From a virus (Duplodnaviria > Caudoviricetes), in the IMG/VR virus record IMGVR_UViG_3300034980_000806, positions 1 to 51,713 of that record: a stretch of DNA of 51,713 nucleotides. One strand, given 5' to 3'. Shown one piece after another: positions 2,091-39,587 of the stretch. A program made the position numbers and the translations under genes. The number at the start of each line of letters is the position of its first letter. Positions within the stretch are counted from its first letter, which is position 1. Below the pieces are notes generated by a model, which worked only from the letters and a program-made list of their open reading frames with translations, did no database searches and was not told the origin of the DNA.

Positions 2091-5042
2091 TTACTCCCCA
2101 GAAATAGAATCAACCTTCTTACAAAGGTCTGCAATCATAGCAATGATATTAGCCCGATCAGCTACAAGGGCAGCAATGATGAACGCTTTTAGTTCGTTCA
2201 TCCTAAAGCTGTACAAGTCCCCGGCTTTCTTGATCAAAACTTTTTGAGCTGGGCTAACCTCGACCTGCTCGCCGTGAGCATCATCGATAACGACTGCAGG
2301 CCTATCTTCCCATTCATCACCCCATGAATCGTAACAAATAAAGCTGTATTTCATAGGATCAAGATCATAATAGCGCATGATCTCGATCGCACGCTGCACA
2401 GTCATGCCGCTGTGTAATCTTGCATTGTCGCCTTCGGATTCAACACGCTCTAACCATTGCCATATTCCAAACTCATTAGCCAAGTCAATTCCTGCAGAGA
2501 CTTCGGCGCGAGATAGTTTTCTGACCGGCGTTTTAAGGCGTCCATCCGAGCTAGAAATAGCTGTATTAGCAGCATAAAATGTTGTAAACCTACGATCCGG
2601 TTTGCCTACCGATCGAATATTGTCTTCATCAGGCCTTATATTTCCGGCAAAGTCAATTAGCGACGTTTCGCTATCAAATCTCCCCATTACAACTGTTGAG
2701 TCATCGTTATACAGTCTTACTACTTGACCGCTAACTGACGCATCATTTGAACCGGACCTGAATCGAGACTTACCTGACCTTGCAGAAACAACATAGTTAT
2801 CTGACTGATGCGTCCATGTGTCAGTTGATGGGTTGAACCTTGAAACGGTAGCGCCCGAGGTATCAAGAAGCCGATATTCACCTGAAGGTGTCCGATAGAG
2901 CACAGGAACTCCTGCTGCATCGGTGAATCCAACCCTTTGTCCGGCTCCAGGGCGAATGTCTACGTGACCGCTAACGCCATACGACCAGCCGTCCCATATG
3001 ACTTGATTTGGGCTGAACATGCCAGGGTCCCCTGGCGTAGTGAATCGGCCGTCTGTAGTAGGGTACGCTGGACGGTTGTCGAGCCCTGAAGTGCCACGAA
3101 CTTTCTGTCCAAGTCTAAGCTGGTAGGTGTTAGTGCCGGCAACGTTGCGTATGCCAGTACCGCGACCTTCGACGTCTTTGCTCTCGAATGAACCGTTGTA
3201 CTCCAATTGCAGGACGTTACCCAAATATAGGGCGATGTCATCACAGCTCATGATCTTGCAAGAATCGTTAAACTTCAGGCCACGGATATTTGCCCCGCTG
3301 ATCTCAATGCAGCGCGACGGCGTGGAATAGCGATGCGCACCGAATGCAGCCGAGGTCGCACGGTACTTCCGGTGGTTCATGCCATAGAAGTAGCAGTTAT
3401 CCCAGTTTGCATCCGCCACGCCATTTGTGCGTTCACCCAAGATTACCTTGTTGGCGGTATTGGTTGGATCGATCGAGGCAGGTGATGGGGTGACACCGGT
3501 GATGCGCAGATTAGCGCCAACTTTCTGCGTGCCCGTGTAAGTACAGAACAGACCACCGTACTCTTGAGTGCGGAAAGTGTTGTCAAATGACGGGTCGAAC
3601 GGGTGTGAGTCGAACCATTCAATTTCGATCCAGTCTGCGCCGACCGCCTTAATGTCGTAGAGGTCCGAGCCGCGCACCAAGAACGATGCGAACCCTTGGA
3701 AGTTACAGTGCGAGAACTTGTTGCGCTCCCAGTCCGGTGACCGCATGTCCCCACCTGTTAGAGCAGTGCGACCGAAACACCCAGCCATGCGCCAGAAGCC
3801 AACCACGGAAACGTTGACTGCCGTGAAATCGTGGTGGTTGTCGACCCACAGACCGATATCCCAGTCATCAGCCCAAGTCGCCGCATCTGTGTTGTAACCG
3901 TCAATACCGTCGTAGTAGGGCAACAAGCCGACATCGCGCAGCTGAGCGAAACCGCCTTGCTCTACTTTCCAGCCGCACGAGAATAGCTTCTGCGTGGCAG
4001 GTGCACCGGTCACAGGGTTCGCATCGTTGTTCCAGAACGAAGTTTTGCGGTACGTGCTGTCATACCCTGGCTCAAACGTCGACACGTTGGTGCGTTGGTC
4101 ACCATCGGTCGCACCCGCGCAGGCGGCTAGATTGGCAACATGAACGCGAGGCCCAGTGCCCTTGAATAGATAGTTGGTGCCTATAAGGCGGAACTCGCGA
4201 ATGGGGTCCTGCGGAGTTGAAGGGTTCTTCAGCGGCCCCTCGCCCACGTACTTCACGCCCTGCGGCTGCACTACGGTAGTGGTCGAGATATAGGTACCTG
4301 CAGGCCCAAACACATACCGGCCTCCCGCCCTAGCATGCTCGAAAGCGCATTGCGTGGCTGCCCAGTCCACCTCCTCGGTTAGCGACGTGATGGTGATATT
4401 TGAGTAGTGCAACTGTGCTGCGGCGAGCGTTGAGTAATAATCACCGAGCTGGTGGCTGTTACCATCCCCGATAGCACCATAGTTTTTGATGTTGAGCACT
4501 TCAAGCGACATTACTGCAACATTACGGGCGACGGCACCCGCCAGCGCGGACTTGGCGAAGACCAGTGAAGCCCCCAAAGCGGGGTCAATCGTGCTACCAA
4601 GGTCAGAGCGCAGAATGTCGTCACCCAACGGAGTGAACTTCGCAGAATCTGTCGCCCACACGCCGGTAGTCGTGAATGGCCTAGCAACGCCAGGAGCCGG
4701 GCGCCAGTACACCCCGGACTCAAGAGTGAACTGGTTCGGCTCGGTGAAGGTCAGTCCGGCCGCGAATGGCCCCATATACTGGTAGCCGGTGGATAGCATG
4801 AGCGCATTGAAGCGTTCAGTGCGGTCGCCCTGAGCAGCAAGAAAGCGAATATTGCGCTCAATCTGAGCGGCATCAAATGCCTGCTCCATGCCTGCGATCG
4901 ACTTACGGGTTCGACCTTTCCGGTCAATCCAAATCGGGGCGTCACCGTTTGCAGCCAAGTCGATGTTGCCGGAGTTATCGAACAGGTCGAAAGGACTGCT
5001 GGAGCCATCGGGCTCAACTGGGTTTCCGGTGTTGTAGCGCAT
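2091..5042 (-). CDS. Tailspike/tail fibre with pectate-lyase-like beta-helix and C-terminal S74-type autocleaving chaperone
   Basis: Likely start MRYNTGNP (GGAG RBS); NIKNYGAIGDG beta-helix entry motif; SSDGRLK cleavage motif then coiled-coil end. Confidence 0.85.
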   Translation of the reverse strand: MRYNTGNPVEPDGSSSPFDLFDNSGNIDLAANGDAPIWIDRKGRTRKSIAGMEQAFDAAQIERNIRFLAAQGDRTERFNALMLSTGYQYMGPFAAGLTFTEPNQFTLESGVYWRPAPGVARPFTTTGVWATDSAKFTPLGDDILRSDLGSTIDPALGASLVFAKSALAGAVARNVAVMSLEVLNIKNYGAIGDGNSHQLGDYYSTLAAAQLHYSNITITSLTEEVDWAATQCAFEHARAGGRYVFGPAGTYISTTTVVQPQGVKYVGEGPLKNPSTPQDPIREFRLIGTNYLFKGTGPRVHVANLAACAGATDGDQRTNVSTFEPGYDSTYRKTSFWNNDANPVTGAPATQKLFSCGWKVEQGGFAQLRDVGLLPYYDGIDGYNTDAATWADDWDIGLWVDNHHDFTAVNVSVVGFWRMAGCFGRTALTGGDMRSPDWERNKFSHCNFQGFASFLVRGSDLYDIKAVGADWIEIEWFDSHPFDPSFDNTFRTQEYGGLFCTYTGTQKVGANLRITGVTPSPASIDPTNTANKVILGERTNGVADANWDNCYFYGMNHRKYRATSAAFGAHRYSTPSRCIEISGANIRGLKFNDSCKIMSCDDIALYLGNVLQLEYNGSFESKDVEGRGTGIRNVAGTNTYQLRLGQKVRGTSGLDNRPAYPTTDGRFTTPGDPGMFSPNQVIWDGWSYGVSGHVDIRPGAGQRVGFTDAAGVPVLYRTPSGEYRLLDTSGATVSRFNPSTDTWTHQSDNYVVSARSGKSRFRSGSNDASVSGQVVRLYNDDSTVVMGRFDSETSLIDFAGNIRPDEDNIRSVGKPDRRFTTFYAANTAISSSDGRLKTPVRKLSRAEVSAGIDLANEFGIWQWLERVESEGDNARLHSGMTVQRAIEIMRYYDLDPMKYSFICYDSWGDEWEDRPAVVIDDAHGEQVEVSPAQKVLIKKAGDLYSFRMNELKAFIIAALVADRANIIAMIADLCKKVDSISGE

Positions 5043-5047
5043 AATTT

Positions 5048-5080
5048 CTCCGGGCACAAAAAAGCCCGCACTAGGCGGGC
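5048..5080 (-). terminator. Intrinsic terminator fused to tailspike RBS
   Basis: GCCCGC-ctagt-GCGGGC-T6-GTGCCCGGAG. Confidence 0.75.
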
Positions 5081-5098
5081 ATGCTCGATAAGGTCCGG

Positions 5099-8000
5099 TC
5101 AGGCCGGTGGAAATTGGTCGTCGTAGGTGTAAACGCGGGCGTCGTAGGGCATGCCCTTCATTGCCGTGTTGCCGTTGACTGGGTCGGAACTGGTGATCAG
5201 AACCGGATAGGCCCAGCGCGAGGCCGGGCCGAACAGGATGTGCGGCGGCTCCAGCGGGCCGTCCACTTCTGGCGTGAAGTCGAGCACGTCGACCTGCACC
5301 GTGTACTGATCCACCTGCGTTGCCGTCCAAGGCCCAGACAGCGTGCCGTCCAGCTTGCGAACGCCGATCAGGTGCTCGCCGCCGGCGCTGAAGTCCAGCG
5401 GCTCCGATGAGCTCAGCAACGTGCCCGAACCGGTCACCTCGAAGTCCAGCAGGATCGCGCTCTGGCAACGCTTTGGCGCGTCATCCGCAACGGCTGCGAA
5501 GCTCAAGTAGCCGCTGTTGCTGCCGTCCATTTCGGTTTCCCAGGTGTAGATGTCGGTCCTGAACTTCTGGTGGCCACGCCGGCGCATGCCGATACGGTAG
5601 GCCCTGGTCCTGTCGCTGATGCCAGGCATCTTGATCTTCTCGACCTTGGTGCCGAGGTCACCCGGCCACCGGCACTCGACCGTCTCCCACGCCCAGGTGG
5701 TGCGCGAGAAGAACTCCACATCCACGCCGTCGAAGTCGTTGATCGACGGCATGGCGCCGCTGATCTTCAGCATCTTGGTCATGTTCTGCGGCGAGTAGGT
5801 CTGGGTCTTCGGGCCGTAGGTCACATCGAACGCGGCCCGGGCGCTATCCCGAACCGGGCGCAGCAGGCCCCGGAAGGTCACCAGTTCGCCGAAGCTGCAC
5901 GCCAAGGCATTGTTGATCATGTCCTTGACCGTTATCGTCGATTCCAGCGTTTCGTCGTAGGTGTCTCCGCGGGCAACGCAGATGTTGTGGAAGGCCTGCC
6001 ACTCGGGCAGATCCAGGTCATCATCAGCGTACCCGCGCTGCTTCAGCTGGTAGATGCACCAAGGAACGATGTCGCGGCTTGGCCCGGTACCACCCTCCAT
6101 CAGCGGGAGAATGCGAGTCGCCTCAACGCTGACCTGGCTCTCAGACTGCGCAGACAGACGGTCACCGCCGCGGATGTTGCAGGTGATGACCGTCAAGCCT
6201 GGATAGCTGGTGGGCGAGTTCTGCATCCGCCCGCGCAGGTCCGTCCATGTTGCGTCATCACGCGCTTCATCGTTGATACGGCCGGGACGATCCACGTACT
6301 GCTTGCGGATACGGGCCTCGGCGCGCATTGCGTATGGCAGCGATACGCGCTCAGTGAAGCCCTGGGCATCAAGCGACCCACCCACGTTCATGTACTGGAG
6401 CTGGGTCCAGGCTCCGGACACGTCCATGTCGCGATACTCGAACACGTAGTAGGTCGGAATCTCGTAGATCTGCCCCTCGCGTCCTATGCCGCACAGGCCA
6501 TTGGCGTAGGTTACGGTCCACTCCAGTTCGATGACCTTCTCGTTGTCCGGGCAGCAGGAGAACGGCCCTCGGTAACCGCCTTGCAGATTCGAGGCGTCCA
6601 GCGTTATGAGGCCGTTCACCGTCTGCATGGAATTGAAGCCAGGCCAGTCCTCATCGGCCGATCCAGACGAGGTCAGTCGCTCCACCTCAATCAGGCTCGT
6701 GCTGAAGGCCGTGATCCGGTAGCGGAGGCCGCGCGGGCCGATAGTTGCCAGACCTTGGCCCAACGCAAGGCCGACCACCGGCTCGCCACCGTCGTAGTTC
6801 AGCGTCATCTCAGCCGGATGCGCAGGCGTGCCGCCGGTAGTGGCTGTGCCTGTGACACCTACTGGCGCAGAGCCCAACACTACCGAAGCGCCGGACGCCG
6901 TGATGGGCATGCCGAAGAACGGAGTCAGTTCTACGAAGCGAATCACGCCTGAGGACTGCTCGGCCTTGATCGGCACGCCAGTCAGTTGCACATTCAGAGC
7001 CGAGACCAGACCGGCAATGTCTGTTGTCGCGGAGTTCAGGGCTACTGGGTATGCCGTTCCTGCGTGCGAAATTGTGAAGCCGAGCGGCGTCACGTCAAAA
7101 TCGTACCGGCTTGGCGCTGCGGACCCTGTCAGCGTAGAAGCTGACCCTGGATCAGCCGGAACTGCTGGCACTGCTGGCGTGAAGCTGTGCACCACGTACA
7201 TCCCGGCATTTGCTCCAGCCACTTCGATCAGCATACCCGAGCTTGGATTCAGCATTTCCAGCGGACCGCGGATGATGTCACGGTCAGCGCCTCCGTCGAC
7301 TACCTCATAGCTGTACGGAGCCAAAGCCCGAATAATGATCCCGCTGGACCAGTCCTCCGGGAATTGGCCGGCACCGGCAGGAGCGCTGATCGTATCGCCG
7401 ACGAACTGATACGCGGAAGCCGTGGCCGACCTGGTGAGGTCGGTGGCCATGGTCAGTTCCAGGCCGGCCGAGCCGCTGGAGCTTGCCCCTACCTCAGGAA
7501 CGTTGAACCAGTTGATGTGGGCCGGGTCGCCCGACAGATCAGCGCCTGGCGGGTAAATCGTGAACGTTGCATCGGATCCGAGGGAGATCAGCGGGGTTTC
7601 GCCAACCTTGACCTTGGCCAGCGGTACGTCGTACTCGCCTTCGCCGATGTACAGCAGCATTTCCACGCGCTGGTCACGCGGGGCGACATGCGCCCGGCGG
7701 GGCTGGGTCAGATACGACGGATAAACCCGCTGATGGCCGGCGATCTGGCGCACTGGCTCTCCCAGCTTGACCTTGTTGCCCTTGGCGCTGGCCTCGGTCA
7801 GAGGGTCACCCTGCTGGGTGCCGGCGCTGGATGGCATGCCGGGCATCTTGGGCATAATCGACTTCAGCACCGCCTTGGCGCCTTTGAACAGCGCGAAGGT
7901 GATGGAAAATGGGTCGGTGCCTTTCGGCTCGCGGTAGATCTGCAGAAGGTCGGCAGGCTTGAACTTCACCTTGTGCCACAGGTGCTGCTCGATCAGCTCA

Positions 8001-29823: not shown

Positions 29824-30754
29824 TGCGCTGTCCTCCTTTGCCGTTGAGGATCGCGTCAGCTGCTTCCTGTGCCGCGTTGATGTTCGCCTGGGTCTGCTCC
29901 TGCTGGCGGGCAGTGGTGGCATTCATCTGGCGGTTGGTGACCCATTGGGTATGGTAGGCCTCGGCCTTGGCCAGCAGGTCGCCCAGGTTGTGGCAGCCGT
30001 TGATCAACCGGGCGTCGTTGATCGTCAGGAAGTACGCGGCCACATGGTGAGCCACGTCGATCCCGAGGCGGCTGATCAGCTGCCCAACCTGCCCGCCTGC
30101 CTTGGCGTTCCATACCGGCCACGCGTGGTAGCGCTTGCGATAGGCCATCGCATAGTTGGCCCAAGCCTTGAAGGTTTTGCAGGACTGGTCTTTCGGGCCA
30201 GGCATATCCTCAGGGATTGCGCAGCGTGGTTGCGGTACCAGTGCGATGACCTTGCCGGCGCTCTCTCCCGCTTCAGCGGGTGGGGCGCAATGCTCAAGAT
30301 CAGTACTTGCTTCTTCTTCAGTGGGTTGCTGAAGATCATTCTTTATTAGTGGGGGATTTTCCGGCGCCGGTTTTGCCGGGGCCGGTTTAGCCGTCGCCGG
30401 GTTTTCCGGCTGTGGTGAACCCATAGACGGATTATCCGTCTGTGGTCGCTCGCACACGGTGTAGGCCATGCCGTTGAACGAACCGCCGTCATTGCGCGCA
30501 CGGTCAACAGCCATGTAACCAGCTGCCTCAAGCTCCTTGATGATCACGCGCACAGCATCACGGCCGCTGGACTTGCCAATAGCCTTGCTGGTCTGCTTGA
30601 TCAGGTGGGCGACGGAAACCTCCCAGTTGTCCGGCTTGCCCAGCAGGAAGATCAGCAGGCCACGAGCACCCCACGAAAGGCGTTCGTCTTCGCTGATGGA
30701 CTTGTCCAGGGTGTAGAACTTCGTTTCAGGCCGAGGGGCACGGATGATGCTCAT
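29810..30754 (-). CDS. Replication initiator (O-like, N-terminal winged HTH)
   Basis: D.RLSWGARGLL..LL.KPDNW motif; internal iterons. Confidence 0.8.
   Translation of the reverse strand: MSIIRAPRPETKFYTLDKSISEDERLSWGARGLLIFLLGKPDNWEVSVAHLIKQTSKAIGKSSGRDAVRVIIKELEAAGYMAVDRARNDGGSFNGMAYTVCERPQTDNPSMGSPQPENPATAKPAPAKPAPENPPLIKNDLQQPTEEEASTDLEHCAPPAEAGESAGKVIALVPQPRCAIPEDMPGPKDQSCKTFKAWANYAMAYRKRYHAWPVWNAKAGGQVGQLISRLGIDVAHHVAAYFLTINDARLINGCHNLGDLLAKAEAYHTQWVTNRQMNATTARQQEQTQANINAAQEAADAILNGKGGQRNAFL
30354..30441. repeat. Putative replication origin iterons
   Basis: Four tandem 15-mers GGATTTTCCGGCGCC / GGTTTTGCCGGGGCC / GGTTTAGCCGTCGCC / GGGTTTTCCGGCTGT plus palindrome AGACGGattatCCGTCT; short AT-rich tract adjacent. 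Confidence 0.7.
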
Positions 30755-31119
30755 TCCATCACCTCGAAATAGAATTTGTGCTCCTTGTCGAAGCCGAGGA
30801 CAGGGAATGCGCCCGCAGCCTTCAGGTAGAGCAGTTGGGAATGGCCGAAGACAGGCTCGCCAGTAACCGATTTCGCAATCAGGTACATGCGGTAGTCCTC
30901 AACCGTTTTCGCCCCTTTTGCGCCGTTGCAGGGGTTGCAGGCTGGCATCAGGTTCTCGATCCGATTCGAGCCGCCGTGCTTGCGCGCGGTTACGTGGTCG
31001 ACAGCGAATGTCAGCAGTTCGACAGGCGTTCCGCAGTACGAGCAGCGCCCGCCAGTTTTGGCGTACACGCGCTCGCGCTTGGTGTTCTTCATGGCCTTTA
31101 CCATCAATTCCATGCTCAT
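30751..31119 (-). CDS. HNH endonuclease
   Basis: CSYCG, DHV..R.HGGSN...NL..AC..CN..K. Confidence 0.9.
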   Translation of the reverse strand: MSMELMVKAMKNTKRERVYAKTGGRCSYCGTPVELLTFAVDHVTARKHGGSNRIENLMPACNPCNGAKGAKTVEDYRMYLIAKSVTGEPVFGHSQLLYLKAAGAFPVLGFDKEHKFYFEVME

Positions 31120-32836: not shown

Positions 32837-33028
32837 TCAGGCCGCGTCAGTGTTCGCGTTAAGCTCTTGCATCATCTGGTCGAGACCGCGCTCCAAAATT
32901 TCCCTGGCGAGCACAGCCTTTTGCGTGCGCTTGAAACGAGCCATCGCCGAAAGCAAGTCGTCGGCAGCCTCATCCAAGCGAACCTTGGTGGGCTTGTTGT
33001 GCAGGTGGTCGGGGTCGAAGTACGACAC
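32837..33028 (-). CDS. Small RHH-type regulator in cII position
   Basis: TKVRLDE...QKAVLAREIL; directly after cro. Confidence 0.65.
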   Translation of the reverse strand: MSYFDPDHLHNKPTKVRLDEAADDLLSAMARFKRTQKAVLAREILERGLDQMMQELNANTDAA

Positions 33029-33055
33029 GGTGGGTTCCTTTGTGGTTGAAAGTGG

Positions 33056-33304
33056 TTAAGCGGCGGAAAGCGCGTGGGTCGGATTGCTGTCGATCTGGTT
33101 CCATGGGAACGAAGGACACAGGTCGGCACGATTCACGGCGCCATTCGTAAGCGCCTCAATCTGTAATGCGCGCTTGGCTGGGACCGTGCGCTCTCCTGAA
33201 CACCATTGGTTGACGGTTGGTGCCGCAACACTCAGCCGGCGCGCCAATTCCGCCTGGCTGCCCAGCACGCGGGATGCTTCTTTGGCTGCTTCTGCTGATT
33301 TCAT
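33056..33304 (-). CDS. cro: Cro-like repressor (YdaS family)
   Basis: GSQAELARRL.V....VNQW HTH; divergent from cI. Confidence 0.9.
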   Translation of the reverse strand: MKSAEAAKEASRVLGSQAELARRLSVAAPTVNQWCSGERTVPAKRALQIEALTNGAVNRADLCPSFPWNQIDSNPTHALSAA

Positions 33305-33331
33305 GAGTTCTCTCCTGGAGATTTACCGATG

Positions 33332-33360
33332 AATATAAGGCATTACCTTATCTCGCACAA
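33332..33360 (-). promoter_or_regulatory. pR promoter
   Basis: TTGTGC-17 nt-TATATT. Confidence 0.65.
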
Positions 33361-33408
33361 GCCATTGCCTAATCGCTCTAGCGATAGGCCTAATTAGGCA
33401 ATGCTTAC
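33336..33408. promoter_or_regulatory. oR operators (three 15-bp sites)
   Basis: TAAGGCATTACCTTA 33336, CAAGCCATTGCCTAA 33358, TTAGGCAATGCTTAC 33394. Confidence 0.8.
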
Positions 33409-34243
33409 CGGACCAGAATTAGGCGCAGCCATTGATGCCGCGCGGATCGCCAAGGGCGTATCGAAGAAACAACTCGCAGACGACTTCCAGGTGAAGCCTC
33501 CGTCAGTGCAGGGCTGGGTGAAAAACGGCCGGATTGACAAGTCCAAGCTGATGGATGTGATCGTTTACTTTTCTGACGTGGTGGGCCCCGAGCACTGGGG
33601 GCTTCGGCCTGGCTTCTCTTACGAGAGCCTTCCGGAGGTGACTTCGGAGCCTGTCGCCGAGCCGGCGCCGGCCTCAGCTGCCGAAATGGTTCGAGCAATG
33701 CTCGCCAAGCAAGGCAAGAACTTGTCGGATACAGCGCGCGCGCAGTTGATTGCAGCCGCCGAAGCGACTGATGAGGGAAATGTGATTACCGCAGACTTCT
33801 CTCGGCCTGGCCTGGTCGGTGATGAGGTTAGGATCGCTCACTACGACATCCGCGCAGCAATGGGCGGAGGCCAGATTCCGCACGATTACCCGGAGATGCT
33901 CAAAGACATTCGCGTCAGTCCGAGCCATCTACGCGAGCTGGGGGTCGAGTTTGAGGAGCACTACCACCTGAAGGTGGTCACCGGCTGGGGCCAGTCGATG
34001 GAGCCCACCATCAAGCACCGTGACCCGTTGATCGTGAACATCAACGTGCGCGACTTCGTGGGCGATGGGGTGTACCTATTCGTCTGGGATGACCTGCTCT
34101 ACATCAAGCGGCTGCAGGTGGCTGATGAGGAGCACTACGAGATGATTTCGGACAACCCGCGGCACAAGGATCGACTGATCCGGCGGGACATGACCTACAT
34201 CCAGGCGCGGGTGCTACTGGTCTGGAACACACATCTTGTTTAA
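33401..34243 (+). CDS. cI: CI repressor (HTH + S24 autopeptidase)
   Basis: N-terminal HTH; GQSMEP catalytic Ser and IKRL Lys. Confidence 0.93.
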   Translation: MLTGPELGAAIDAARIAKGVSKKQLADDFQVKPPSVQGWVKNGRIDKSKLMDVIVYFSDVVGPEHWGLRPGFSYESLPEVTSEPVAEPAPASAAEMVRAMLAKQGKNLSDTARAQLIAAAEATDEGNVITADFSRPGLVGDEVRIAHYDIRAAMGGGQIPHDYPEMLKDIRVSPSHLRELGVEFEEHYHLKVVTGWGQSMEPTIKHRDPLIVNINVRDFVGDGVYLFVWDDLLYIKRLQVADEEHYEMISDNPRHKDRLIRRDMTYIQARVLLVWNTHLV

Positions 34244-34279
34244 ACCTTACTGACATTTTTTCATTTATAAAAACCACAC

Positions 34280-36097
34280 ATGAACATAATCGGGCGTGAC
34301 GCTTTAGACCAAAAATTTAGACATAAAACTAAAGATTTTGAACCTTTCATTAGCCACATAAGATTTCCGAAATACCGAAATCTTGAACCTGGCCTAAAGC
34401 TAGACTTTTTATACCCGATAACAGCTCTCGTTGGTGAGAACGGAACCAACAAAAGCTCAATCATCAGAGCACTTTTCGGCGCCCCTGCGGACAACTCTCC
34501 AGGCACATTTTGGTTCTCGACATCGTTAGACCCTATAGAGGAAGAAGGCGGGACCCCCAACTGCCTAATTTACGGCTACCTCAACGAGCATGAGAACCGG
34601 ATTGTTGAAGTTCTTAAAACACGTTCCAGATACGATAAAACAGTGGCGGGTCAAAACCCTGACTACTGGGAACCTTCGCGCCCGATAGTAAAATATGGCA
34701 TGGAAAGAATGCCTCCAATTAAGACTGGCGCCCCCTTACCTAAAGGGCGATCAAAAACCAGATATAACGCAATAGCCAAAAAAGTCACTTTACTAGATTT
34801 CAGAACAGAGCTAAGCGCCTATGATAAATTTTTTTACCACGGCGATTTTCTCAAAACTGAAAAAATAAAAACCAAGCAGGACTTCATTCGACACAAGTCA
34901 ATTCATCTTCATGCCGCAATTGAAGCAAAATCGGCAAGTTACTTATATTATGGTAGAGATAAAATAGAAGACAAGCTCAATCGCGAACTTAGCAAGGATG
35001 AAACCGAACTTGTTTCATACGTTTTGGGGCGATCGTATAAAAAAATTGAAATAGTTGCGCACACGTTTTTTAAGAACCCTGGAAAAACTGTTCGTTTGTC
35101 ACATTCAGACATTCGGTATTCAGAGGCATTCGCAGGAAGCGGAGAGTTCGCGGTCGTCATGTTAGTGCTTGGCGTACTACAAGCCCCTCCAAACTCTCTA
35201 ATCCTACTAGACGAACCTGAAGTTTCGCTACATCCTGGCGCGCAGGAACGACTAATGAAGCTGCTTATTAGCGAGGTCACAAAAAATAATCACCAGGTTA
35301 TTTTATCTACTCACTCACCAGCGATTATTAGGCACCTCCCGCCATCCGCAATCAAAACCCTCAGATTGAACGAAAACACTGGAAAGGTCGCTTTGGTTTC
35401 GCAGAGCCTGTCTCCAGACGATGCATTTTACTACATCGGTGAACCTTCAGCGACTAAGCTTACAATTATTGTGGAGGATAAGCTCGCCAAATCGATAGTG
35501 GAAAGAGCCCTAAAAAGCTTGGGGCCTCACGTTGAAAAATATGAAGTAATGTATATACCAGGTGGTGCGGAAGCCTTGTGGGCGACCTATGTTCCAATAT
35601 TTTGCATTGCCGATCGAAAAGATATTCTTTTTCTTCTCGATGGAGACAAACGAAAACCTCCATTACGTAAATCCTCCTCAATACCAGAAGCGGAAAATGA
35701 AAGTCTCGGAGAAGAGATTAAAAAGCTAACCGGTTGTAAAATCGACTTCAAGATCGATGGGAGCGGAAAAAGCGGCGGAAACAAATCTCAACTTTACTCT
35801 ATGCAACGCCAATTTATAGATTGGACATCGCAGTATGTTGATTTTTTACCAATGAATACTGCAGAGGAATTCATAGTGGCAAATAGCCCTTCTTTTTCAA
35901 CGACGCATAAAAACCGTGACGCGAAAGAGATCATACTGGATTACGCAAAAACCCAACTTGACAGAGGCAGCGCAGACCAAATAAAATCTGAGGAGATTTT
36001 TACAATTCAATGTATTGAGCTAGCATTAATTCCTTTTAGCAATGCCGATTTCGAAAAAATACGCTCTCGAATCGAGAAATTCAATGATGGCAGATAG
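34280..36097 (+). CDS. OLD-type ATP-dependent nuclease (ABC ATPase + TOPRIM)
   Basis: Walker A variant GENGTNKS, signature-like AGSGE, Walker B LILLDEPE, STHSP; TOPRIM IIVED and LDGD; AT-rich. Confidence 0.8.
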   Translation: MNIIGRDALDQKFRHKTKDFEPFISHIRFPKYRNLEPGLKLDFLYPITALVGENGTNKSSIIRALFGAPADNSPGTFWFSTSLDPIEEEGGTPNCLIYGYLNEHENRIVEVLKTRSRYDKTVAGQNPDYWEPSRPIVKYGMERMPPIKTGAPLPKGRSKTRYNAIAKKVTLLDFRTELSAYDKFFYHGDFLKTEKIKTKQDFIRHKSIHLHAAIEAKSASYLYYGRDKIEDKLNRELSKDETELVSYVLGRSYKKIEIVAHTFFKNPGKTVRLSHSDIRYSEAFAGSGEFAVVMLVLGVLQAPPNSLILLDEPEVSLHPGAQERLMKLLISEVTKNNHQVILSTHSPAIIRHLPPSAIKTLRLNENTGKVALVSQSLSPDDAFYYIGEPSATKLTIIVEDKLAKSIVERALKSLGPHVEKYEVMYIPGGAEALWATYVPIFCIADRKDILFLLDGDKRKPPLRKSSSIPEAENESLGEEIKKLTGCKIDFKIDGSGKSGGNKSQLYSMQRQFIDWTSQYVDFLPMNTAEEFIVANSPSFSTTHKNRDAKEIILDYAKTQLDRGSADQIKSEEIFTIQCIELALIPFSNADFEKIRSRIEKFNDGR

Positions 36098-37114
36098 ATG
36101 ACCATAAATGTCTTCGATTTTTTTTCGGGCTGCGGAGGCACGAGCTGCGGTTTCCGAAATGCCGGAATGAATGTACGGCTGGGTCTTGATATTGACCCAG
36201 ACGCCGCGAAAACATATAGGTTCAATTTTCCTGAAGCCGAATTTATTGAAGCAGACATCCGAGCGCTTACTCCAGATGTGCTTTCAAAAATAATGCTTGG
36301 CATTGAGGGCAAAGTGCTATTTAGCGGTTGCGCCCCTTGCCAACCGTTCTCCAAACAGAATCGCTTCCAATCGAGCGATGATCCTCGACGCAATCTTCTT
36401 TCCGAATTTGGTAGATTTGTAGAGTTCTGGCTCCCTGACTATGTTTTCGTCGAAAACGTTCCCGGAATGCAGAAAGACTGCCTGAAAAGCGAAACTTTTG
36501 TTAGCTTCACCAAGCTACTGGACAAGCTTGGATACTCATATGATGCAGCAGTCGTGCAGGCCGCATCCTTTGGCGTACCGCAGACTCGGTCTAGACTAGT
36601 ATTAGTAGCAGCCAAGCATGAGACTGTAAGTATACCGAGAGCGACTCATGGCGCGGGACTAGCTCCCTTCTCAACTGTGCGCGATTGGATTGAAGATCTG
36701 CCGCCTCTCGCAGCTGGAGAGGCTAACCAATCGGACCCTGATCATTGTGCTATGAATCTTTCAGAGATTAATTTGCAGAGGATAGCCCACACCCTGGAGG
36801 GTGGCGGAAGAGAAAACTGGCCAGAAGAATTACTTTTAAACTGCCACAGAAATTATTCAGGTCATAGTGATGTATACGGACGTTTAGCCTGGGATAGGCC
36901 TGCTTCAGGCCTGACAACAAAATGCCTCAGCTACTCGAATGGCAGATTCGGCCACCCTAATCAAATGAGGGGATTAAGCTTACGTGAGGCTGCATCACTA
37001 CAGACCTTTCCTAGAAGTTATCGATTCTTCGGCTCCTTGCAATCTCGTGCAAGGCAAGTAGGAAATGCTGTTCCGCCATTGATGGCCGAGAGCATTTCAA
37101 CCGCTTTTAGCTAA
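36098..37114 (+). CDS. DNA (cytosine-5)-methyltransferase
   Basis: FSGCGG (I), APCQPFS (IV), ENVPG (VI), QTRSR (VIII), REAASLQTFP (IX), GNAVPP (X). Confidence 0.95.
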   Translation: MTINVFDFFSGCGGTSCGFRNAGMNVRLGLDIDPDAAKTYRFNFPEAEFIEADIRALTPDVLSKIMLGIEGKVLFSGCAPCQPFSKQNRFQSSDDPRRNLLSEFGRFVEFWLPDYVFVENVPGMQKDCLKSETFVSFTKLLDKLGYSYDAAVVQAASFGVPQTRSRLVLVAAKHETVSIPRATHGAGLAPFSTVRDWIEDLPPLAAGEANQSDPDHCAMNLSEINLQRIAHTLEGGGRENWPEELLLNCHRNYSGHSDVYGRLAWDRPASGLTTKCLSYSNGRFGHPNQMRGLSLREAASLQTFPRSYRFFGSLQSRARQVGNAVPPLMAESISTAFS

Positions 37115-37156
37115 GATTCAGTTGTTGCCCACAATTGCGTGGGCTTTCAACCTCCC

Positions 37157-37483
37157 TCAGAAAGGCGTCTCTTCCTCCGCTCTCTCCTCCCCCCACCCCC
37201 GCTCCACGACCAGGTCTTCACGATCGTCTGCGCTCACCTCCTCCCACCGCACCGTCACGCTCTCGTCATCATTGAACGTCAGGTCCAATTCCGGCGTTTC
37301 GGCCAGCAGCCCCATCACCTCCTCCCACTCCATGTCTCCATCCGTCTCCAGGCGATGGATTGTCACCCAGCGCTGCGACTGAGCGATCGGGTGATTGATC
37401 ATCGACGATACCCGCAGGCCCAGGCGCTCAAGCGCGGTCATCTCTTGGCGCGCTTGTGGGCTCGACTTCTTCTGCTTGGCCAC
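37157..37483 (-). CDS. DUF1654-like acidic protein
   Basis: GTG start MAKQKK after GGAGGAAGG; ERLGLRVSSMINHP.AQ..RWVTIHRL. Confidence 0.7.
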   Translation of the reverse strand: MAKQKKSSPQARQEMTALERLGLRVSSMINHPIAQSQRWVTIHRLETDGDMEWEEVMGLLAETPELDLTFNDDESVTVRWEEVSADDREDLVVERGWGEERAEEETPF

Positions 37484-37498
37484 ACCTTCCTCCGTTAA

Positions 37499-37514
37499 CT
37501 GTATATACATCCAG
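37499..37514. promoter_or_regulatory. LexA (SOS) box
   Basis: CTGTATATACATCCAG matches CTG-N10-CAG with AT-rich core. Confidence 0.8.
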
Positions 37515-37516
37515 TA

Positions 37517-37625
37517 TTAGGCAGAGCTTACCCGAGCCATCGAACGATGCAAGCCCGGATAGCTGATTAGGCGCACATGAAAAAAGTTAGGCATTACCTA
37601 TTTACAAGAATTAGGCATTGGCTTA
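37517..37625. promoter_or_regulatory. oL operators
   Basis: TTAGGCAGAGCTTAC 37517, TTAGGCATTACCTAT 37587, TTAGGCATTGGCTTA 37611; match oR consensus. Confidence 0.8.
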
Positions 37626-37629
37626 TCGT
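37601..37629 (+). promoter_or_regulatory. pL promoter
   Basis: TTTACA-17 nt-TATCGT overlapping operators. Confidence 0.65.
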
Positions 37630-37678
37630 TCATTCCATCGAGGCGCTACACAGCCCCTCGGGAGGCCCTCAAGCCGAA

Positions 37679-37690
37679 CGCTCTTTAACA
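37679..37690 (+). promoter_or_regulatory. boxA antitermination element (nutL-like)
   Basis: CGCTCTTTAACA about 45 nt downstream of pL. Confidence 0.8.
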
Positions 37691-38225
37691 GCCAGCGCAA
37701 CAACCAACAGACCGCATTGCCTCTACCGGCGACCGGCAATCAGACAGCCCCGAAAGGCTGCCCACGACAGGGAGAACCCTGTACGGCTGATCGAGAGCGA
37801 AACGCTCGAACCGCGCGAATGACCCGGCAAGCAATGCGCCCCGCGAATCCCAGCGGCAGAAGGGAGATTCACCCAGATTCGATAGGTGGCCACTGCCTGC
37901 CCAGTGAGCGAGCAACGGAGGGCATCACCATGTGGAAGTAACTGACCGTCGCCGCGCGACAGCCTACCTGGCCGCTACAGAGCAGGGCGCTTTGACCGAC
38001 GAGAGAATATCGGTCACGGAGTGCGCTGGTGTGCCGCCAGCCCCGTTAGCCAGTAGGCCTTGATGGCAGTCCTGATTCGATCGGCTGTTGGCTTCAGCGC
38101 CGGAAACGTACCCGGCAATCACACCGCTGACGCAATGCCCCGGCCTGTCGCCAGTAGCGAGGCCGGGATTTCACCAGGTGCCATTCAGCGAGTGGCATCC
38201 GGGAAATCAACCGGAGGGATTCACG

Positions 38226-38808: not shown

Positions 38809-39098
38809 GCGCCACGACAGCCTGTCGTTAACTGCCCGATGCCCTGCTCCCCATCGCAGGCTGCATCGGGATTTGATCTGAACCGCCAGCAAACTTGAAG
38901 GCGCTGGCACCTAGCCGAGACACGAGGGTTTGCGACCTCGGGAAGAAAGCAAGACCGCGACCTGGCAGTGAGAAATCACCGGAGCGCGGCTGTTCGGGGC
39001 GCGGACGTCGGCGCCAAGCGGGGCTTGCCTTCCGCACAGATCAAATCACCGATGCATCCCGCATCCCCTTCCCTTCAATTCGAACTCAGGAGATGCCA

Positions 39099-39587
39099 AT
39101 GCTGACGCATGAACGCCTTCGAGAGCTGCTGGCGTATGACCCGGGAAACGGCGTATTCACTTGGCTAAAACAGAAAGGTACACGAGTTGCTGGAAAGCCT
39201 GCCGGCTATGTGTGCGGCGACAAAGGCATCTACATCATGGTCGACAAGAAGGGGTATCGCGCCCACCGCCTCGCTTGGTTTTACATGACTGGAGCGTGGC
39301 CTGCTGATCAGGTTGATCACATCGACAGAAACCCAAACAACAATGCCTGGGCGAATCTGCGCGAGGCCACTGGATCCCAGAACAGCCACAACACCAAGCG
39401 TGCGCACACCAATACCAGCGGTGTAAAGGGTGTTTCATGGGTGTCGAGTCTTGGAAAGTGGCGAGCACAGGTAAAGCTTCGTGGCGTCCTCTACTCCGCT
39501 GGCGACTTTGACGACCTTCAGAAAGCTGCAGAGGCTGTTCGATCTCTGCGAACCAGGCTACACGGCGAGTTCACTTGCCACGGGTAG
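39099..39587 (+). CDS. HNH homing endonuclease with AP2-like domain
   Basis: [34 protein letters not shown]...KWRA. Confidence 0.9.

Follow-up and report, generated by a model that had tools for sequence, protein, structure and literature searches.

The window analysed here, a stretch of 51,713 bases, is a complete provirus record (IMG/VR virus record IMGVR_UViG_3300034980_000806; Duplodnaviria, Caudoviricetes), and this report concerns a cassette of two genes that follows its cI-like repressor gene. The first open reading frame (ORF A; 34280..36097, + strand; 605 amino acids) was assigned by Pfam, PADLOC and an AlphaFold (AF2) model to the OLD-family ABC-ATPase/TOPRIM nucleases. The second (ORF B; 36098..37114, + strand; 338 amino acids) encodes a C5 DNA cytosine methyltransferase (Pfam DNA_methylase, 2e-57). 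A gap of 36 nucleotides separates the cI stop from the ORF A start, and a terminator scan found 0 terminator-like sites in this interval (34243-34280). The TAG stop of ORF A abuts the ATG start of ORF B with zero spacing (36097/36098). The G+C content was 0.40-0.50 over positions 34200-37100, compared with about 0.59-0.61 in the flanks. The layout described in the initial annotation, an AT-rich two-gene cassette 36 nucleotides after cI with no evident terminator and with abutting stop and start, was thus confirmed.

ORF A was compared with several profile libraries. The Pfam matches were AAA_21 (3.6e-20) and AAA_15 (1.4e-17), and no Pfam TOPRIM model matched. In PADLOC the top model was HEC-04 (5.6e-31, a partial match), and the retron I-B ATPase-Toprim (4.8e-21), AriA (about 1e-20), Old (2.5e-15), PtuA and GajA models matched as well. 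A match to AriA of the PDB was also obtained (6.9e-08). No NCBIfam model came near its cut-off, and the sole sizeable match in PHROG was a family without known function.

Residue conservation was counted over 64 aligned relatives of ORF A. In the Walker A motif GENGTNKS (residues 52-59; 34433..34456, + strand), G55 and K58 are invariant (64/64). The initial annotation had called this motif unusual. The asparagine before the lysine, at position 57, is real, but it is a trait of the clade: 46 of the 64 sequences carry Asn, 17 carry the canonical Gly and one carries Ser, and hence Asn is a tolerated variant. Also invariant in all 64 sequences are A283-E289 of the signature FAGSGEF, D311, E312 and P313 of the Walker B/D-loop LILLDEPE (residues 307-314; 35198..35221, + strand), and H345 of the H-loop THS. 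The same holds for the TOPRIM glutamate with its neighbour, E399-D400 (35474..35479, + strand), and for the DxD motif D454-G455-D456 (35639..35647, + strand), which is also unchanged in 66/66 C-terminal domains. The full ABC and TOPRIM motifs listed in the initial annotation are therefore present, with core residues that do not vary. In the helical part that follows the TOPRIM core, E529 and K549 (span 35864..35926, + strand) are both invariant (64/64). By analogy with class 2 OLD proteins, E529 may be the second-metal ligand and K549 the catalytic lysine (PMC6755086). The blocks DPDYWEPSRP and YSEAFAGSGEF are invariant and specific to this family.

The AF2 model of ORF A, built from the 64 relatives, had a pLDDT score of 90.3 (predicted local distance difference test). 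When the whole chain was searched with Foldseek, the top match was the class 1 OLD protein of Thermus scotoductus (6p74; E 2.2e-13), with PtuA, GajA and retron Eco8 effectors next in rank. Residues 17-390 correspond to an ABC head, with Z scores of 17-19 to SMC, Rad50 and PtuA. The C-terminal 222 residues were modelled separately (pLDDT 93.1) and compared with 48,161 chains, with no prefilter. The top match was AriB (Z 8.1, root mean square deviation 4.4, 150 residues aligned), followed by the C-terminal region of the B. pseudomallei OLD protein and T. scotoductus OLD (Z 7.8 for each); retron Eco2, GajA, Eco8 and the TOPRIM domain of T7 primase came further down. The best Foldseek match of the same domain was the C-terminal region of X. 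campestris OLD (E 3.6e-3). These Z values are moderate. The ranking as a whole is nevertheless coherent, and the modelled domain is closest to an OLD-type TOPRIM. ORF A thus combines, in its sequence and its model, the two structural hallmarks of the OLD family, an ABC ATPase and a TOPRIM domain, and the corresponding activity is predicted.

The Pfam match of ORF B covers profile positions 2-320 of 324, and strong matches were also obtained to PADLOC MTase_II (8.4e-89) and TIGR00675 dcm (1.3e-42). Motif I (FSGCGG), PCQ, ENV, QTRSR and GNAVPP are all present. Among 39 partner methylases of ORF A relatives, motif I, PCQ, ENV, QxRxR and GNAVPP are conserved, and the catalytic P80-C81-Q82 (36335..36343, + strand) is invariant (39/39). 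To judge from these motifs ORF B is a complete and intact C5 methylase, as the initial annotation had stated, and it is predicted to be active. It may be noted that the codons of motif I (D7 F8 F9 S10) contain a run of eight T (36118..36125, + strand), and that one contig from an RNA library carried a ninth T in this run, by which the reading frame would change at codon 10. Sequencing or assembly error and slippage are the candidate causes; a switchable methylase next to an active nuclease would be odd. A further block, DVYGRL.W..P....TT......GR..HP, is common to the 39 partner methylases. When ORF B was compared by sequence with solved structures, the catalytic domains of eukaryotic DNMT1 led (2.5e-34), and M.HaeIII (6.2e-21) and M.HhaI (about 1e-13) scored well below them.

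To survey the pairing, 80 genome loci with a relative of the ATPase were collected, their ORFs were called anew and clustered, and tblastn was used for missed methylases. A C5 methylase was present in 75 of the 80 loci, 69 by ORF clustering and six by tblastn; in these six the gene had been missed by the ORF caller or cut by the edge of the locus. Among the five loci without a methylase, three (L008, L018, L026) stop at or just past the ATPase gene, and a fourth (L049) belongs to an operon type whose methylase falls outside the fetched stretch. The methylase is therefore present in 75 of 76 evaluable loci, with L037 as the sole true exception. There the methylase-free ATPase gene (L037:4530-6299) has a serine recombinase gene with DUF2924 on one side and, on the other, an HNH gene together with the gene of an 808-amino-acid protein with 0 Pfam matches. 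In 52 loci the methylase was the direct neighbour of the ATPase with zero recognised endonuclease, and in at least five of these (L040, L047, L052, L054, L068) the pair is followed by extra genes of the methylase, GHKL, Z1 or helicase kinds. Every partner methylase found was of the C5 type, and in most loci the stops and starts of the two genes abut or overlap.

Viral loci gave a similar result. The methylase lay beside the ATPase in 54 of 56, the two exceptions being one truncated contig and one GHKL-type locus. The co-occurrence that the initial annotation had proposed to survey was thus found in both sets of loci. The survey was also run from the methylase side, with the best 80 viral loci for the window methylase. 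Among these, methylases with at least 53% identity had the ATPase immediately upstream in 32/32 loci, which are fewer than 32 independent events because many are near-copies, and those with at most 51% identity had it in 0/48. Many of these 48 methylases occur with GHKL proteins or Vsr instead.

The two proteins also diverge together. For 44 ATPase-methylase pairs, the pairwise identities of the two proteins were correlated with a Mantel r of 0.81, and none of 2000 permutations (0/2000) was as high. In a FastTree phylogeny of the ATPase, for which local supports only were available, host phyla are scrambled and operon architectures cluster; the window ATPase sits in the large half of the tree with the order ATPase then methylase. 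Some pairs have decayed. L020, L135 and L136 have a broken nuclease gene beside an intact methylase, and the reverse, a broken methylase, was seen once, in a metagenome bin (L011). By sequence, then, the two genes are a conserved, co-inherited module and their pairing is not a local chance. A complex prediction for the ATPase and the methylase gave a score of 0.00, which is under the mark and carries no verdict on binding.

Relatives of the ATPase are numerous, with 2,242 proteins at E <=0.001 among the 7,999 candidates that were scored. The 120 best have lengths of 552-674 amino acids and identities of 43-100%, and 673 representatives at the 50% identity level match the family profile at E <=1e-30. 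The family occurs in at least eight phyla and in many proviruses, and its members are named in the databases only "AAA family ATPase" or "ATP-dependent nuclease". A protein search of the INPHARED cultured phages gave zero matches at E 1e-20, and among the PLSDB plasmids there was one match only, at 27.7% identity, in Clostridium estertheticum.

The cassette is swapped as a unit between related prophages. Its borders, taken from the comparison with a sibling prophage, enclose about 2.9 kb (34245..37156, no strand assigned). The sibling, the IMG/VR provirus L134, is about 90% identical to the window in nucleotides (blastn) over 33048-34244 and from 37157 onwards, with zero nucleotide match between 34244 and 37157. 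Its cI protein is 94% identical to that of the window, and its slot (L134:2975-6719) holds a divergent pair, the ATPase being 35% and the methylase 38% identical to those of the window. In this comparison the whole cassette is replaced by a distant allele. The pair also occupies the cI-to-DUF1654 slot in the Pseudomonas genomes L001 and L002 (ATPase 70-71%, methylase 79% identical). Pseudomonas phage VW-6S has both borders in common with the window and four different small genes in the slot; the two larger ones were scanned, with 0 Pfam matches. Homology with L134, L001 and VW-6S resumes at the DUF1654 gene (37157). Since L134 and VW-6S keep the borders and differ inside, the slot is a hotspot for cargo, in line with the earlier suggestion that variable cargo occupies the position next to cI. 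In a nucleotide search of phages, only the cro/cI region was matched, in two Pseudomonas phages.

The left border of the slot is the cI-like repressor gene (33401..34243, + strand; Peptidase_S24, 7.4e-16; PHROG transcriptional repressor/CI-like), which ends in TAA. A cro-like gene (33056-33304, - strand; from the ORF list and PHROG) is divergent from it, and an O-like replication gene on the - strand also faces it. The right border is the DUF1654 gene (37157..37510, - strand; Pfam DUF1654, 1.9e-25). Between the convergent methylase and DUF1654 genes lies a weak GC-rich hairpin with a 6-bp stem (37127..37144, + strand; -14.8 kcal/mol), which was missed by the terminator scan and was not significant against shuffled sequences (z -1.2). 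Over 33000-38000 the terminator scan found five sites, no excess over the shuffle mean of 5.4. Since the counts of both the promoter and the terminator scans were at or below those of the shuffles, an internal promoter or terminator cannot be claimed. Two HNH endonuclease genes, at 30751-31119 (- strand) and 38895-39587 (+ strand), flank the immunity module, one in each of the early regions beside it, and match PHROG HNH families (9.7e-29 and 1.3e-68).

Expression was looked at in metatranscriptome contigs only, from which strand, ends and level are unreadable, in which DNA may be present, and whose uncovered parts are meaningless. One contig (34155-35983) spans the cI-ATPase junction and another (35494-36529) the ATPase-methylase junction. 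These contigs are compatible with read-through from cI and are not proof of it. Two metatranscriptome runs of one sample also gave short contigs, 34775-35189 (X17) and 37044-37330 (X16), that match at 99% or more. Their word depth was about 3,000-6,800, against 15-55 for neighbouring contigs; contig depth cannot rank expression.

The initial annotation had also stated that the pair lacks a classical restriction endonuclease, vsr, reverse transcriptase or UvrD partner. For the window this stands as far as it was scanned: the flanking genes are cI and DUF1654, and Vsr had no match anywhere in the 51.7-kb provirus, the window having had no other scan for reverse transcriptase, UvrD-like or endonuclease families. 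It does not extend to the relatives. The 24 remaining evaluable genome loci are bigger operons, often with Vsr too. In 10 of the 80 loci, all from Bacteroidota (L057, L058, L061, L063, L065, L070, L072, L073, L080, L034), a C5 methylase of 420 amino acids, an HpaII-family endonuclease (PF09561; 5.4e-143 in L061) and the OLD-type ATPase form one operon with overlapping stops and starts, and the ATPases of these ten loci are a single branch of the tree. A methylase with a SmaI-like endonuclease and the ATPase was found in three loci, from Actinomycetota, and a methylase with GHKL/Hypoth_Ymh and the ATPase in five. Six further loci combine a methylase, a 1000-amino-acid HATPase_c_3/HEF_HK protein, a Response_reg_2 protein and the ATPase. 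The strand-wise operon of the ATPase also encodes Vsr in no fewer than six loci (L051, L055, L062, L064, L069, L074). The OLD nuclease is thus not always the sole candidate restriction enzyme, because its relatives sit with HpaII-like, SmaI-like, GHKL or Vsr proteins. It was also observed that in L049, L051, L053, L055, L062, L075 and the viral L090 the ATPase follows a protein of about 1000 amino acids (HATPase_c_3/HEF_HK/HATPase_c) and a Response_reg_2 protein; several of these loci have a C5 methylase upstream, and Vsr lies downstream. Operons of this type are two-component-like conflict operons, and the OLD nuclease may be their effector.

We then compared the pair with known systems. Class 1 OLD proteins (P2 Old and T. 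scotoductus OLD, 6p74) resemble ORF A in the fusion of ABC ATPase and TOPRIM and in their size (about 500-600 amino acids), and P2 Old is prophage-borne (PMC10568477). Class 1, however, stands alone by definition, whereas the present family is tied to a C5 methylase (75/76 genome and 54/56 viral loci), and the relation of ORF A to 6p74 is remote (phmmer 2.5e-07; 16% identity in the fold alignment). As to class 2 (Gabija), the neighbours of ORF A are cI and the methylase and include no UvrD/PcrA/Rep-like helicase; among the Pfam-scanned neighbour genes of the 80 loci, a UvrD-like gene appeared only in L068, after the methylase. As to class 3, only cI and the methylase flank ORF A within the cassette borders, no reverse transcriptase-specific or RNA-family scan having been made, and the NCBIfam Eco8 effector model scored 34.5 bits on ORF A against a cut-off of 250. 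As to class 4 (PARIS), one 605-amino-acid ORF holds both domains here. By its gene context the pair is supported as different from OLD classes 1-4 as described in PMC6755086, PMC10568477 and PMC12796447. The last of these also names eleven uncharacterised clades, U1-U11.

Several defence systems share components with the cassette. PARIS (AriA/AriB) and Gabija (GajA/GajB) likewise have an OLD-type ABC ATPase with a TOPRIM nuclease, and both are often carried on prophages and satellites. Gabija, however, needs a UvrD-like helicase. PARIS consists of two proteins and is triggered by the anti-restriction protein Ocr (PMC12839542). Neither system is known to include a methylase. HEC-04/IbfA is fused like ORF A, with an E...DxD spacing of 56 residues (E319-D375) compared with 55 in the window protein, and its defence depends on the lysine of Walker A and on the acidic residues of the TOPRIM domain (10.1101/2024.01.29.577857, PMC12111858). 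It is, however, about 100 amino acids shorter and, as described there, lacks a methylase, and the PADLOC match to it was partial, covering window residues 230-460 and profile positions 157-381 of 494. MADS of Pseudomonas aeruginosa (MAD3-MAD4) also has an OLD-related ATPase with a TOPRIM-type nuclease, and it tells self from non-self via DNA methylation (PMC13662399). Eight genes make up MADS, and its ATPase and nuclease are two distinct proteins, whereas the window cassette has two genes and a fused protein; the NCBIfam MAD3 model scored 30.1 bits on ORF A against a cut-off of 420, which places ORF A outside MADS.

Type II restriction-modification systems with a C5 methylase (HpaII type) and GHKL/MORC-linked C5 systems (PMC2292703) resemble the pair in having an adjacent, co-inherited methylase and nuclease and in their horizontal spread. 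The window nuclease differs in being, by prediction, an ATPase-coupled TOPRIM enzyme. The folds of restriction endonucleases known to us (PD-(D/E)XK, HNH, GIY-YIG, PLD, half-pipe) do not include TOPRIM. A methyltransferase gene next to a nuclease gene, as expected of restriction-modification, is found in the window, where the intact C5 methylase, of predicted activity, adjoins ORF A. In type III systems Res combines an SF2 (superfamily 2) helicase motor with PD-(D/E)XK and Mod is an N6-adenine or N4-cytosine methylase; the window has an ABC ATPase as motor, a TOPRIM nuclease and a C5 methylase. PADLOC, NCBIfam and Pfam contain no model of the pair as a system. In the literature searched, with the supplements of PMC12796447 and REBASE outside the scope, no pair of an OLD-type nuclease and a C5 methylase was found. 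The initial proposal of a distinct class is hence upheld by the gene context and by the libraries searched, PADLOC included. An OLD-related ATPase/TOPRIM effector in a methylation-based defence has, however, a published precedent in MADS (PMC13662399).

In our judgement there is about an even chance that the cassette is a two-gene, ATP-dependent restriction-modification-like defence with the TOPRIM nuclease as its restriction subunit, carried as lysogen-expressed prophage cargo. The C5 methyltransferase would mark the DNA of host and prophage at its target. The OLD-family protein, with its ABC-ATPase head fused to a putative two-metal TOPRIM nuclease, would use ATP to cut incoming DNA that lacks the mark, and methylated DNA would be spared. 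The nuclease would thus be restrained by methylation and expressed from the cI transcript, and the cassette would protect against phage. The target may be found by the nuclease itself, reading unmethylated sites via its variable C-terminal helical region, or the methylase may guide it. Restriction-modification is the simplest account because a toxic-looking nuclease is almost never seen without one particular methylase. It fits the pattern of decay, in which the nuclease was broken first in three of the four pairs, the allelic replacement in L134, and the precedent of MADS (PMC13662399). It also fits the pairing of related methylases (40-51% identical) with GHKL ATPases, since C5 methylase and GHKL ATPase pairings have been described as restriction-modification systems (PMC2292703). 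The two-way co-occurrence of the genes, the parallel divergence of their proteins and the invariant catalytic residues speak for it as well.

Several observations weigh against this account. A classical endonuclease already lies next to the methylase in 13 of the 80 loci (HpaII-like in 10, SmaI-like in three), and another 11 hold GHKL or histidine-kinase-like modules; in these 24 loci the OLD protein has the look of an addition, rather than of the only restriction enzyme. The ATPase keeps 33-47% identity across partner methylases of different clades (25-60% identity), whereas type II endonucleases of different specificities have, to our knowledge, no detectable mutual similarity. Of the closest tested relatives, Gabija and the retron effectors sense infection or abort it and are not known to read methylation. 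The same is described for the infection sensors and abortive effectors HEC-04/IbfA (10.1101/2024.01.29.577857, PMC12111858) and PARIS (PMC12839542). L037 has the ATPase and no methylase, no means was found here to infer the target sequence of the methylase, and no experiment on any member of the family was found in the literature. Because the OLD protein looks added in some loci and is conserved across methylase clades, a cue from the methylase, or from failed restriction, fits better than sequence reading by the nuclease itself.

A rather unlikely alternative starts from such a cue: the OLD-type protein would be a guard or back-up effector that senses interference with the methylase or with restriction, and not methylation. 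Anti-restriction proteins, depletion of S-adenosylmethionine (SAM) or a stalled methylase would trigger indiscriminate degradation of DNA or RNA and abortive infection, much as PARIS senses Ocr. The nearest tested relatives are indeed sensor or abortive systems (HEC-04 and AriA in PADLOC, AriA in the PDB, AriB for the C-terminal domain), and in 24 of the 80 loci the ATPase joins an operon in which an endonuclease or a GHKL module is already present. OLD-ABC/TOPRIM modules beside BREX have also been read as back-up suicidal effectors (PMC12839542). On the other hand, the methylase is the sole partner in 52 of the 76 evaluable loci, at least five of which have further genes after the pair. The subclade of the window methylase is never without the ATPase (32/32, among the best 80 viral loci), whereas a sensor that stands by itself, as HEC-04/IbfA does, has no need of a methylase; and the nuclease gene breaks first in three of four decayed pairs, as would fit a toxic enzyme restrained by methylation. 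The computed results separate neither the restriction-modification-like account nor this one from the other.

Improbable in our view is a role in damage control, in which the ATPase/TOPRIM protein would repair T:G mismatches arising from 5-methylcytosine deamination, or methylase-DNA adducts, as a larger analogue of Vsr in dcm-vsr, while the methylase, as an orphan, would serve to protect the DNA of the phage. All partner methylases found are of the C5 type, and the window provirus has no Vsr. In the Bacteroidota operons the ATPase follows the methylase and R.HpaII-like genes, and in the classical HpaII system a vsr gene stands at the corresponding place. Vsr and the ATPase are nevertheless not substitutes, because at least six loci hold both in the same operon; the defence-tested relatives considered here are defence proteins, and the cassette, with its highly divergent alleles, behaves as prophage cargo that can be swapped. 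One archaeal OLD class has been described as non-defensive, with a role in the cell cycle (PMC12796447). It is very improbable that the slot merely houses two independent cargo genes, a stand-alone class-1-like OLD defence protein and a phage methylase of the orphan kind. Phages commonly carry orphan methylases. Class 1 OLD proteins and HEC-04/IbfA need no partner (PMC10568477, 10.1101/2024.01.29.577857), yet the strict two-way co-occurrence contradicts this explanation, and so do the co-divergence of the two proteins and the stops and starts that abut or overlap in most loci.

A bolder reading, which builds on the guard or back-up account and which we think unlikely, is that the methylase serves as sequence reader or bait besides marking self, and that the nuclease, without sequence specificity of its own, is licensed by the state of a C5 methylase at work on DNA that lacks methylation or cannot receive it. 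The triggers would be sites with no modification at all, altered cytosines in phage DNA, or a methylase stalled because the phage depletes SAM. Such a mechanism would explain how one nuclease family occurs with methylases of different clades, and beside HpaII-like and SmaI-like endonucleases. If true, this would be the first restriction enzyme of the TOPRIM fold and, in addition, one guided by a methylase.

Taken as a whole, the pair is a genuine module, widespread and without a name, and probably an undescribed kind of restriction-modification defence. It would be either a restriction-modification system with a new type of nuclease or, among the OLD nucleases, a class new by its gene context. 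Should the nuclease prove to be the restriction subunit, the TOPRIM fold and an ABC-ATPase motor would be added to the restriction-modification enzymes. A methylase-coupled class would then join the OLD family, beside published classes whose partners are none, a helicase, a retron, a split protein or an archaeal membrane protein. Present defence finders would call an orphan methylase at such a locus and overlook the system.

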